Below are positions 6,001 through 9,000 of a stretch of 64,000 bases of DNA, one piece after another (the first letter of the stretch is position 1; each line of letters begins with the position of its first letter). Where the stretch lies: the NCBI RefSeq assembly GCF_058153355.1, contig NZ_CM177019.1. One strand, 5' to 3'. The position numbers are program-made.

Positions 6001-9000
6001 GGTTGTGGGATTATGCCAACCGCTCACAGGCATTATTCCGCGAACTGTATCCGGCATTAAAACAAATTCAATCGAACTATTCCGGCAGATGCCACGACTA
6101 CGGTCATGAGTTCTCGTATGTTATCGGAATGGCGAGAGACGTTTTAATCAATCACACACGAGATGTTGATATTAATGAGCCAGACGGACCAACGAATCTT
6201 TCTGCATGGGTAAGACTTAAGAACAAAGAATTACCTCCTTCACTGCATCACTACTGACAGATTGCCAACGCAACGACCCAGCTTCGGCTGGGTTTTTTAT
6301 TGCTGAATTTTCAATATGAGAGGACATGACAATGAACGAGCTGATAAATAGCAACGCCATCAAAATGACCAGCATTGAAATCGCTGAGTTGGTGGGAAGT
6401 CGTCACGACAAGGTGAAACAATCTATTGAACGACTGGCGGCTCGAGGTGTGATCCGAAATCCCCCAATGGTGGTTTTCGAAAAAATCAATAACTTAGGGT
6501 TACTTCGTGGCGTAGAGGCTTACGTTTTTGAGGGCGAACAAGGTAAGCGAGATAGCATTATTGTCGTCGCCCAATTGTCGCCGGAATTCACCGCTCGTCT
6601 TGTTGACCGTTGGCGAGAGCTTGAAGGGGCAACCGCAAAGATTCCACAAACCTTTTCTGAGGCATTGCGCCTTGCGGCTGACCTTGAAGACCAGAAGGCT
6701 GAATTGGAGAAACAGCTTGCTCTCGCGGCACCTAAAGTTGAGTTTGCCGATCGCGTTGGCGAGTCCAGCGGAATTTTGATTGGAAACTATGCAAAGGTTG
6801 TTGGTATTGGTCCAAACAAACTGTTTGCATGGATGCGCGATCACAAAATCCTTATTGCTTCAGGTTCCCGGCGCAATGTGCCAATGCAGGAATATATGGA
6901 TCGCGGCTATTTCACAGTGAAAGAAACAGCAGTCAACACAAATCACGGAATACAGATATCGTTCACCACAAAAATCACCGGGCGTGGCCAACAGTGGCTG
7001 ACCAGAAAGCTGCTCTATAACGGAATGCTGAAAGTAACAGGGGAGGCTGCTTAATGGCTAACTTACGCAAAGAAGCGCGCGGCAGAGAATGCCAGGTACG
7101 TATTTACGGCGTATGCAATGGCAATCCTGAAACTACAGTTCTGGCACATTACCGGATGGCTGGAATTTGCGGAACGGGAATGAAGCCTGACGACCTGATC
7201 GGCGCATGGGCTTGTAGCGCGTGTCACGATGAAATCGACCGACGCACCCATAACCTCGACAACAAAGACGCCAGACTTTACCACCTCGAAGGCGTGCTCA
7301 GGACGCAGGCGATACTGCTGAAGGAGGGGAAGATTAAGCCATGAACGAATATCAGTTTGTGCTTCCATACCCACCGTCGCTGAATACCTACTGGCGAAGA
7401 CGGGGAAGCCAATACTACATCAGCGATAAAGGCCAGAAATACCGAAAAGATGTACAGCAAATAATCCGCCAACTCAAGTTAGACATTTTCACCAAATCAC
7501 GACTCCGCATCAAAGTAATCGCAGACGTTCCAGACTCCCGCCGCCGCGACCTCGATAACATCCTGAAGGGTTTACTCGACTCCCTTATCTACGCCGGATT
7601 TGCGGAAGACGACGAGCAATTCGATGACATTCGCGTAATTCGTGGTGTGAAAGTACCAGGCGGAAGGCTTGTAATAAAAATCACCGAACTGGAGAACGTA
7701 TGAACAAAGCATTCGAACGATATATGCGCCAGCGTTATGGCAATCGCTACGATCTTACCCGCGATGCTTACGGCTTCTACTGTCGTGAGGTTGTGAAACG
7801 AATGTTTGAAGTGTGGTGTCATTGCAAAGGATAGAGGGGAAGACGATGAGACTCGAACGCGTAGCTAAATTTCATTCGCCAAAAAGCCCGATAATGAGCG
7901 ACTCACCACGGGCTACGGCTTCTGACTCTCTTTCCGGTACTGATGTGATGGCTGCTATGGGGATGGCGCAATCACAAGCCGGATTCGGAATGGCTGCATT
8001 CTGTGGTAAGCACGAACTCAGCCAGAACGACAAACAAAAGGCTATCAACTATCTGATGCAATTTGCACACAAGGTATCGGGGAAATACCGTGGTGTGGCA
8101 AAGCTCGAAGGAAATACTAAGGCAAAGGTACTGCAAGTGCTCGCAACATTCGCTTATGCGGATTATTGTCGTAGTGCCGCGACGCCGGGCGCAAGATGCA
8201 GAGATTGCCACGGAACAGGTCGGGCAGTTGATATAGCAAAAACAGAGCAGTGGGGGAGAGTTGTTGAGAAAGAGTGCGGAAGATGTAAAGGCGTCGGTTA
8301 TTCAAGGATGCCAGCAAGCGCAGCATATCGCGCTGTAACGATGCTAATCCCAAACCTTACTCAACCCACCTGGTCACGCACTGTTAAGCCGCTGTATGAC
8401 GCCCTGGTGGTGCAATGCCACAAAGAAGAGTCAATCGCAGACAACATTTTGAATGCGGTCACACGTTAGCAGCATGATTGCCACGGATGGCAACATATTA
8501 ACGGCATGATATTGACTTTTTGAATAAAGTTGGGTAAATTTGACTCAAGAATGGCAGATTTATATCCGTTCACATTCTTTCGGTTTTTTACCCACCTCAT
8601 CTTTAAGTTCTAAGCGCACTGACATGCGCATCATAAACTCGAGAGCACATAGGAATAGAGCCTGCATAACGGTTTCGGGATTTTTTATTTGGGTCAGTCG
8701 TATAAAGGTCATTACGGAAGGCTGTTAACCTTCTTATCGTGGTTCGAGTCCACGCTGTCCCGCCAAACATGCTGGTTTAGCTCCAATGGTAGAGCAGTCG
8801 CCTTGTAAGCGAATGGGTAGCGGTTCAAGTCCGTTAACCAGCACCATAACTGAGCCGTAGCCACTGGCTATCCTGAATTCATCAGTGACAGTTACGCTGC
8901 GGCCTTCTTTTTCCCTTCCCAATATAAGAACTACGCCATCCGTTATTTGCGGAGGTGAGGCTATGAAATCCATGGACAAAATATCAACGGGCATTGCCTA

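Follow-up and report, generated by a model that had tools for sequence, protein, structure and literature searches.

A tRNA-Asn/tRNA-Thr pair lies between the late promoter and the lysis genes

The 64-kb stretch of DNA analysed here, hereafter the window, contains a prophage whose late region holds, in order, a lambda-type Q gene, the late promoter pR', a leader that ends in a residual tR' terminator, a tRNA-Asn gene, a tRNA-Thr gene, a long hairpin and the lysis genes (Table 1). RusA and YbcO are encoded upstream of the cassette, and genes for terminase, portal, protease, major head, tail sheath and tail-fibre proteins follow downstream. An IS66-family element is inserted among the tail genes, and the late genes of the interrupted prophage may never be expressed. 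The prophage end adjoins ipaH (Pfam NEL and LRR_TTSS domains), beyond which an ato/rcs-type chromosomal region begins; these surroundings suggest a Shigella-like or EIEC-like host.

Table 1. Features of the prophage late region (positions in the window)
Feature	Position	Strand	Evidence or remarks
Q late-gene antiterminator, lambda type	7846-8469	+	Pfam PF03589, 192 bits; 204/207 identical to lambda Q
Late promoter pR'	8512-8547	+	-35 TTGACT 8512-8517; -10 TAAATT 8535-8540; start ~8547
Leader segment: 5' end of an HNH homing-endonuclease cassette, remainder deleted	8549-8664	+	Identity to E. coli EC187792 locus L010
Residual tR'	8638-8690	+	Right arm and U-run of lambda tR' intact; left arm replaced by partly complementary sequence
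Deletion junction, single retained 9-bp repeat TAGAGCCTG	8656-8664	+	Comparison with L010
tRNA-Asn (anticodon GUU)	8691-8765	+	ARAGORN; Rfam RF00005; discriminator G73; CCA encoded
tRNA-Thr (anticodon UGU)	8771-8846	+	ARAGORN; Rfam RF00005; G1-C72, C2-G71, A73; CCA encoded
Long hairpin (8854-8903) followed by CTTCTTTTT	8854-8912	+	Candidate second terminator or processing site
Lysis cassette overall	8963-10139	+	Pfam, ORFs, phage 21 annotation
S21-type holin	8963-9178	+	Pfam PF04971
Endolysin, phage-lysozyme family	9178-9675	+	Pfam PF00959; the aligned phage 21 slot holds a SAR endolysin
Rz	9672-10139	+	Pfam PF03245
Rz1	9892-10098	+	ORF

Across the whole 64 kb, ARAGORN returned two genes in total, a tRNA-Asn (gtt) and a tRNA-Thr (tgt). 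Both were recovered in a permissive Rfam scan of positions 7800-9600 as full-length matches (model 1-71) to RF00005, with scores of 55.3 bits (E 9.5e-11) for tRNA-Asn and 61.5 bits (E 2e-12) for tRNA-Thr against a gathering score of 29 bits; the same permissive scan gave no match besides these two in that range. Single-sequence folding produced a cloverleaf for each, and the CCA ends were read directly at 8763-8765 and 8844-8846. The initial annotation, made by eye, had claimed two tRNA genes ahead of the lysis cassette with full cloverleaves, encoded CCA and the anticodons Asn-GUU and Thr-UGU. All of this was borne out, and ARAGORN, one of the two tRNA finders that it had named as a check, returned both genes with the claimed anticodons. 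The span that it had assigned to the pair, 8512-8846, does enclose the tRNAs and is too wide, given that position 8512 begins the -35 hexamer of pR' and 8547-8690 is late leader.

The tRNA-Asn has two stem mismatches, T4.T69 in the acceptor stem and U13.U22 in the D stem. The anticodon stem of tRNA-Thr consists of four pairs because G27 and A43 are unpaired. Both anticodon loops have seven bases with U33 and a purine at position 37 (CUGUUAA in tRNA-Asn, CUUGUAA in tRNA-Thr). The identity elements for E. coli AsnRS are G34, U35, U36 and G73, and those for ThrRS are G1-C72, C2-G71, G35 and U36. Every one of them was found when the two phage sequences were read, and both tRNAs are predicted to be charged by the E. 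coli enzymes. The phage tRNA-Asn shares 44 of 76 aligned positions with K-12 asnT, and the tRNA-Thr shares 50 of 76 with K-12 thrU. Capture of host tRNAs by the phage was rejected because these identities are low (58% to asnT, 66% to thrU) and because phages of different hosts carry identical copies of the cassette.

The late terminator has been remodelled by an insertion and a deletion

The hexamers of pR' are separated by 17 nucleotides (TTGACT-17-TAAATT), and the promoter aligns to pR' of lambda and of HK446. The Q-binding region between the hexamers carries two mismatches to lambda, and HK446 shows the same two. Of the lambda late regulatory unit, a lambda-type Q and a pR' with -35, -10 and Q-binding region are present. 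The start at about 8547 and the pause element AAGAAT (8547-8552; AACGAT in lambda) were assigned by homology. A promoter scan of 8300-9100 detected nothing besides pR', and a separate promoter for the tRNAs was rejected, pR' being the sole promoter-like site in this range.

Downstream of pR', the leader (8549-8664) differs from the lambda 6S sequence and matches the 5' part of an HNH_3+AP2 cassette. Window positions 8470-8664 are 98.5% identical to positions 901-1094 of a locus of E. coli EC187792 (L010), where this segment lies upstream of an intact HNH_3+AP2 ORF. A 9-bp repeat, TAGAGCCTG, occurs at positions 1086 and 1821 of L010. Since it is present twice there and once in the window, 735 bp are missing from the window, and the deletion took with it the endonuclease ORF, the remainder of the 6S body and the tR' left arm. 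The sequence of the junction is GGAATAGAGCCTGCATAACGG.

The best hairpin that the residual tR' can form has a folding energy of -9.6 kcal/mol (z -0.84), compared with terminator hairpins of -26.9 kcal/mol in lambda, -28 kcal/mol in HK446 and -20.2 kcal/mol in phage 21. A strict scan for intrinsic terminators in 8300-9100 found none, and hairpins in this range were therefore assessed by folding. The window thus has no strong intrinsic tR' after pR', and some residual activity is possible. The damage to the terminator between pR' and the tRNAs had been missed by the initial annotation, as had the fact that the genes are known and partly characterised experimentally. Beyond the tRNAs, the hairpin at 8854-8903 is far more stable (-23.4 kcal/mol, z -4.5); none of 200 shuffled sequences was as stable, and the region is conserved in lambda, 21, Sf6 and HK446. 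It could act as a second stop after the tRNAs.

A search for the deletion junction gave 0 matches in species-representative genomes and one match, L011, among IMG/VR contigs, which has the same junction and is 99% identical across window positions 7833-9473. E. coli FDAARGOS_943 also has the junction, together with a further 7-nt deletion that creates a 10-pair stem beside the U-run, and this second deletion may be a compensatory repair of the terminator. The copy in the window illustrates how insertion of a homing endonuclease followed by a microhomology deletion can remodel the lambda late terminator. With the left arm of tR' gone, some polymerase could plausibly reach the tRNAs here without Q. 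If weakened in this way, the terminator might allow pR' to drive some Q-independent synthesis of the tRNAs, an idea that can be tested and that bears on the question of prophage tRNA expression in lysogens.

The tRNA pair is a known module of lambdoid phages

Window positions 8685-8850 are identical at 166 of 166 positions to phage 21 (AJ237660, OL657228) and Sf6 (AF547987). The annotation of both phages places tRNA-Asn and tRNA-Thr (CPT_21_64 and CPT_21_65 in OL657228) directly behind the terminator of the late leader and ahead of the lysis genes, and the same annotated pair was found in SfI, mEp506, Kapi1, BTP1 and others. The genome paper on SfI places the pair downstream of Q in SfI, Sf6, ST64T, PS3 and 21 (PMC3636060). 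We found the cassette in 368 of 5426 complete E. coli genomes, mostly at an identity of at least 99%, and the NCBI pipeline labels its genes tRNA-Asn and tRNA-Thr in E. coli genomes. The copies of the cassette are 95-100% identical, too similar for covariation analysis to be informative. The pair is therefore already known, being annotated in 21, Sf6, SfI and hundreds of E. coli genomes. The position that the initial annotation had given it, between Q/pR' and the lysis genes, agrees with the annotated pair in 21, Sf6, SfI, HK446 and mEp506; its observation and interpretation were right, for a feature that was already known and annotated.

The partners of the cassette vary. It is found with a lambda-type Q in the window, HK446 and EC187792, and with Q21 in phages 21, Sf6 and L; the accompanying holin is of the S21 type or the lambda type, depending on the phage. 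Its left edge is the U-run of the terminator, its right edge is sequence that is also conserved in lambda, and the equivalent slot in lambda holds orf-64. Judged from these boundaries and partners, the cassette behaves as a mobile module.

Two readings in which the tRNAs would not serve translation were weighed against these data. The genes could be decaying relics, that is, functionless pseudo-tRNAs in a defective prophage, as might be supposed from the IS66-family element that interrupts the prophage, from the deletion in the leader and from the two stem mismatches of tRNA-Asn. However, neither gene differs by a single base from its counterpart in the viable phages 21 and Sf6, where the mismatches occur too. 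The scores of both are well over the Rfam threshold, and their identity elements and CCA ends are intact. We consider this reading very improbable. Alternatively, the tRNAs could serve RNA processing or architecture, either as RNase P/RNase E entry sites at which the late mRNA is cut away from its leader, or as targets for recombination or attachment, with decoding being incidental. Their location directly after the terminator U-run and ahead of a conserved hairpin would fit such a role, as would the conservation of the cassette edges across mosaic relatives and the replacement of the lambda orf-64 region. Against it, conservation reaches the anticodons and the identity elements, and the tRNA-Thr has demonstrated rescue activity that depends on decoding (PMC12445682). 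A role of this kind as the main function is extremely unlikely.

Codon supply accounts for tRNA-Thr at best

Codons were counted in long ORFs taken as gene proxies, and the prophage late genes were compared with the flanking host genes by Fisher test. ACA was used at 14.5 per 1000 codons in the prophage late genes and at 7.5 in the flanking host genes (p=5e-5), and its frequency in the prophage early genes was 13.2 per 1000. Asn codons (AAC+AAT) stood at 44.6 per 1000 in the late genes and 44.0 in the host genes (p=0.87). ipaH showed no significant enrichment over host genes in either ACA (p=0.14) or Asn codons (p=0.18). The initial annotation had proposed looking for enrichment of the cognate codons in the phage late genes and in ipaH; the expectation held for ACA in the prophage, roughly 2-fold, and failed for Asn codons and for ipaH. 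When all codons were ranked, ACA was the fourth most enriched in the prophage, behind AGA, AGG and AAG. Codon supply leaves unexplained why the phage provides no tRNA for AGA and AGG, the most over-used of the rare codons.

K-12 has four tRNA-Asn(GUU) genes (asnT, asnU, asnV and asnW), so that host supply of this tRNA is not scarce. The outcome for ACA and Asn codons repeats the published result for SfI, in which ACA was used at 17.3 compared with 7.1 and Asn codons were unbiased; the same paper calls the tRNA-Asn of the pair unexplained (PMC3636060).

These data were used to evaluate pure codon supply, according to which the tRNAs serve solely to increase the decoding of codons more frequent in the phage than in the host. 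In its favour are the enrichment of ACA, shared between this prophage and SfI, and the capsid gene of phage L, in which 24 of 25 Asn codons are AAC (PMC8022706). The major head gene of the present prophage, however, has 11 AAC and 6 AAT codons. The overall frequency of Asn codons is not raised, the host is not short of tRNA-Asn(GUU), and the prophage carries no tRNA-Arg(UCU), although AGA and AGG top the list of enriched codons. Since Asn codons are not enriched, codon supply accounts for the tRNA-Thr at best.

The phage tRNAs lack the published determinants of two defence nucleases

Host tRNA-Thr(UGU) is cut by the OLD Toprim nuclease of P2, and this cleavage kills cells infected with lambda (PMC12445682, Nucleic Acids Res 2025). 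In the same report, OLD cuts tRNA-ThrU at a paired CNG motif (positions 28-30 and 40-42), phage tRNA-Thr(UGU) species restore viability under OLD and host tRNAs do not, and tRNA-Thr21 from phage 21 both protects cells and resists OLD cleavage in vitro. Host tRNA-Asn(GUU) is among the more slowly cleaved of the OLD substrates examined (PMC12445682). A second nuclease, AriB of the PARIS system, has Lys(UUU), Thr(UGU) and Asn(GUU) as its main targets; its cleavage site lies between positions 40 and 41, a U36-A-A-U39 motif is common to all targets, and the T5 variants of tRNA-Lys, tRNA-Thr and tRNA-Asn neutralise PARIS (PMC12409363, 2025).

The rescue data also bear on codon supply. Overexpressed host tRNA-ThrU fails to relieve OLD toxicity and the phage Thr tRNAs succeed (PMC12445682), which shows that sequence matters and that dosage is not everything. 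Taking this together with the codon counts, we regard codon supply as the sole function as unlikely, and provision for rare codons, which the initial annotation had in mind with its tRNA morons, is probably not the main function of the pair.

The tRNA-Thr of the window is identical in sequence to tRNA-Thr21, and this identity to a tested molecule demonstrates its anti-nuclease role (PMC12445682). We compared the anticodon arms of both phage tRNAs with those of their host counterparts (Table 2).

Table 2. Anticodon arms of host and phage tRNAs
tRNA	Positions 27-31	Positions 39-43	Paired CNG	Base 39	Base 41
Host thrU	ACUGA	UCAGU	yes	U	A
Phage tRNA-Thr	GUCGC	GCGAA	no	G	G
Host asnT	GCGGA	UCCGU	yes	U	C
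Phage tRNA-Asn	GAAGG	CCUUC	no	C	U

The comparison shows that the published determinants are missing from the phage tRNAs: neither has the paired CNG or U39, and base 41 differs from that of the host counterpart. Where host tRNA-Thr has CUG/CAG at 28-30/40-42, the phage tRNA-Thr has UCG/CGA, and its G27.A43 is unpaired. The phage tRNA-Asn has AAG/CUU, C39 and U41, so that the determinants for OLD (paired CNG) and for AriB (U39, C40|C41) are both absent. Loss of the CNG motif is weak evidence by itself, because the motif is common, occurring in 12 of 27 sampled K-12 tRNA species. The paired CNG was accordingly downgraded as a discriminating test for OLD targeting. For the tRNA-Asn, the anticodon arm suggests a possible anti-nuclease role.

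Proposed expression and function of the pair

The reading that we favour, and hold to be very probable, is that the two genes are a late-operon tRNA pair made with Q-modified polymerase, whose products replace or top up host tRNAs in late protein synthesis. From the anatomy of the region, transcription would begin near 8547 at pR', a constitutive promoter of the lambda type. Polymerase not modified by Q would, in related phages, halt at tR' just ahead of the tRNAs. In 21, Sf6 and HK446, a strong hairpin and U-run ends one or two bases upstream of the first tRNA, and the tRNAs of these phages should therefore need Q-modified polymerase. By analogy, polymerase modified by Q would transcribe both tRNA genes and go on into the lysis and virion genes. 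The tRNAs would then be excised from the late transcript by RNase P and 3' processing enzymes of the host, and no CCA addition would be needed, since CCA is encoded. The tRNA-Thr would replace host tRNA-Thr(UGU) cut by OLD, as the literature on the same sequence indicates (PMC12445682). The tRNA-Asn may follow the same logic, host tRNA-Asn(GUU) being a secondary substrate of OLD and AriB.

A more specific proposal is that the pair is a dedicated lambdoid counter-defence module against the Toprim anticodon-stem nucleases of competing P2/P4-type elements (OLD and AriB), as opposed to a codon-usage moron, in which the tRNA-Asn is also a resistant replacement and the loss of the left arm of tR' would have made synthesis independent of Q. 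We put this forward tentatively and consider it, as a whole, rather doubtful. If it were true, a lysogen of this prophage would constantly hold nuclease-resistant tRNAs. Asn and Thr together do figure among the targets of both Toprim defence nucleases, OLD and AriB. As a finding, the tRNA pair adds nothing new, and the anti-OLD function of the tRNA-Thr has already been published; the fresh points are limited to two, the match between Asn+Thr and the nuclease targets and the remodelling of the late terminator by deletion.

Comparison with known systems

The closest counterparts of the cassette are in phages 21 and Sf6, which share with the window the order of the tRNAs, the 5-nt spacer and the position after a terminator U-run and before the lysis genes. 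Phage 21 also has holin, endolysin and spanin types in common with the window. In phage 21, however, the cassette is associated with Q21 and its own promoter and is preceded by a compact terminator, whereas in the window it is driven by a lambda-type Q and pR' and is preceded by a damaged lambda tR'.

HK446, mEp506 and the EC187792 prophage also resemble the window, sharing the cassette, a lambda-type Q and a pR' that differs from lambda at the same two positions. Unlike the window, HK446 has a complete lambda 6S leader and an undamaged tR'. In EC187792, a gene for an HNH homing endonuclease is inserted in the leader, and the window is a 735-bp deletion derivative of that arrangement.

Stx phages of the 933W type carry the cluster ileZ-argN-argO between Q and stx, with tRNAs for the rare codons AUA and AGA/AGG. 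This cluster occupies the same slot downstream of Q/pR' in the late operon of a lambdoid phage. Its tRNAs differ from those of the window, and the set fits codon supply, which the Asn gene here does not.

With respect to anti-nuclease tRNAs, the large arrays of virulent phages differ from the window, which has a two-gene cassette in a temperate lambdoid phage under late control. The T5 set that acts against AriB includes tRNA-Lys; the cassette in the window matches the anticodons of two of the three main AriB targets and is without tRNA-Lys(UUU), the primary target, and so could not neutralise PARIS alone. For OLD, the anticodons of the window correspond to the primary target (Thr) and to a secondary one (Asn). 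As in the nuclease-resistant phage tRNAs, substitutions in both members of the pair fall at the determinant positions 28-30 and 39-42, and the tRNA-Thr of the window is itself among the tested rescuers (PMC12445682).

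Deletion in the late leader

On comparison with the prophage locus of E. coli EC187792 (L010 1086-1829), which carries an intact HNH endonuclease cassette in its leader, the late leader of the window (8549-8690) proves to be the product of a deletion. The window lacks 735 bp between two TAGAGCCTG repeats, and the lost segment contains an HNH_3+AP2 homing-endonuclease gene, the body of lambda 6S and the left arm of the late terminator tR'. The terminator remaining 5' of the tRNAs is weak (-9.6 kcal/mol).

An identical deletion junction was found in E. coli FDAARGOS_943 (L003 1690-1760). 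Beyond the shared junction, that locus differs in having a 46-bp insertion upstream and in having lost 7 nt from the right arm of tR', by which a 10-pair stem is restored beside the U-run. The 7-nt deletion may represent a compensatory repair of the terminator.

Elements adjoining and varying the tRNA cassette

Directly 3' of tRNA-Thr, at window 8854-8912, the sequence folds into a long and stable hairpin (-23.4 kcal/mol, z -4.5), after which comes CTTCTTTTT. The hairpin is kept in phages 21, Sf6 and HK446 and in lambda, which itself lacks the tRNAs. The compared records annotate no function for it; it is a candidate for either a further terminator, second to tR', or an RNA processing site.

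The cassette's second tRNA in Salmonella phage L / ST64T (L008 787-858) is annotated as tRNA-Leu(TAA). It is the cassette's Thr tRNA, here 72 nt long, in which a shorter D-loop and anticodon-arm region has been substituted. Since ARAGORN returned no tRNA call for L008 787-858, this second tRNA may be either a pseudo-tRNA or one that decodes in an unusual way.

Prophage integrity, cargo and neighboring elements

Features located in the window
Feature	Position	Strand	Content or basis
Partner ORF of Gp49-like ORF	4631-4939	(-)	
Gp49-like ORF	4929-5339	(-)	DUF891, toxin-like
Deletion junction	8656-8664		Comparison with L010
IS66-family element	24113-26467		HTH_Tnp_1, TnpB_IS66, DDE_Tnp_IS66 ORFs
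IpaH-type effector gene	36724-38487	(-)	LRR_TTSS + NEL E3-ligase domains
Group II intron reverse transcriptase/maturase	51948-53636		HNH domain

The IS66-family element lies between two tail-region ORFs (23400-24032 and 26687-27898, the latter with an SLT domain), and the prophage is therefore probably defective. The IpaH-type gene directly adjoins the tail-fibre genes on their outer side, a cargo position at the prophage end. In the early region, a small two-gene unit on the opposite strand (4631-5339) looks like a toxin-antitoxin pair. Beyond the prophage, an atoC-like sigma-54 response regulator (51577-53862) is split by the group II intron reverse transcriptase/maturase, and its receiver-domain remnant begins at profile position 53.

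Codon use

ACA and Asn codon use did not differ significantly between the IpaH-type gene and host genes. When the prophage ORFs (window 25-36544) were compared with flanking host genes, AGA and AGG were the most over-represented codons, by about 5-fold. Stx-type lambdoid phages carry tRNA-Arg(UCU), whereas the prophage in the window does not.
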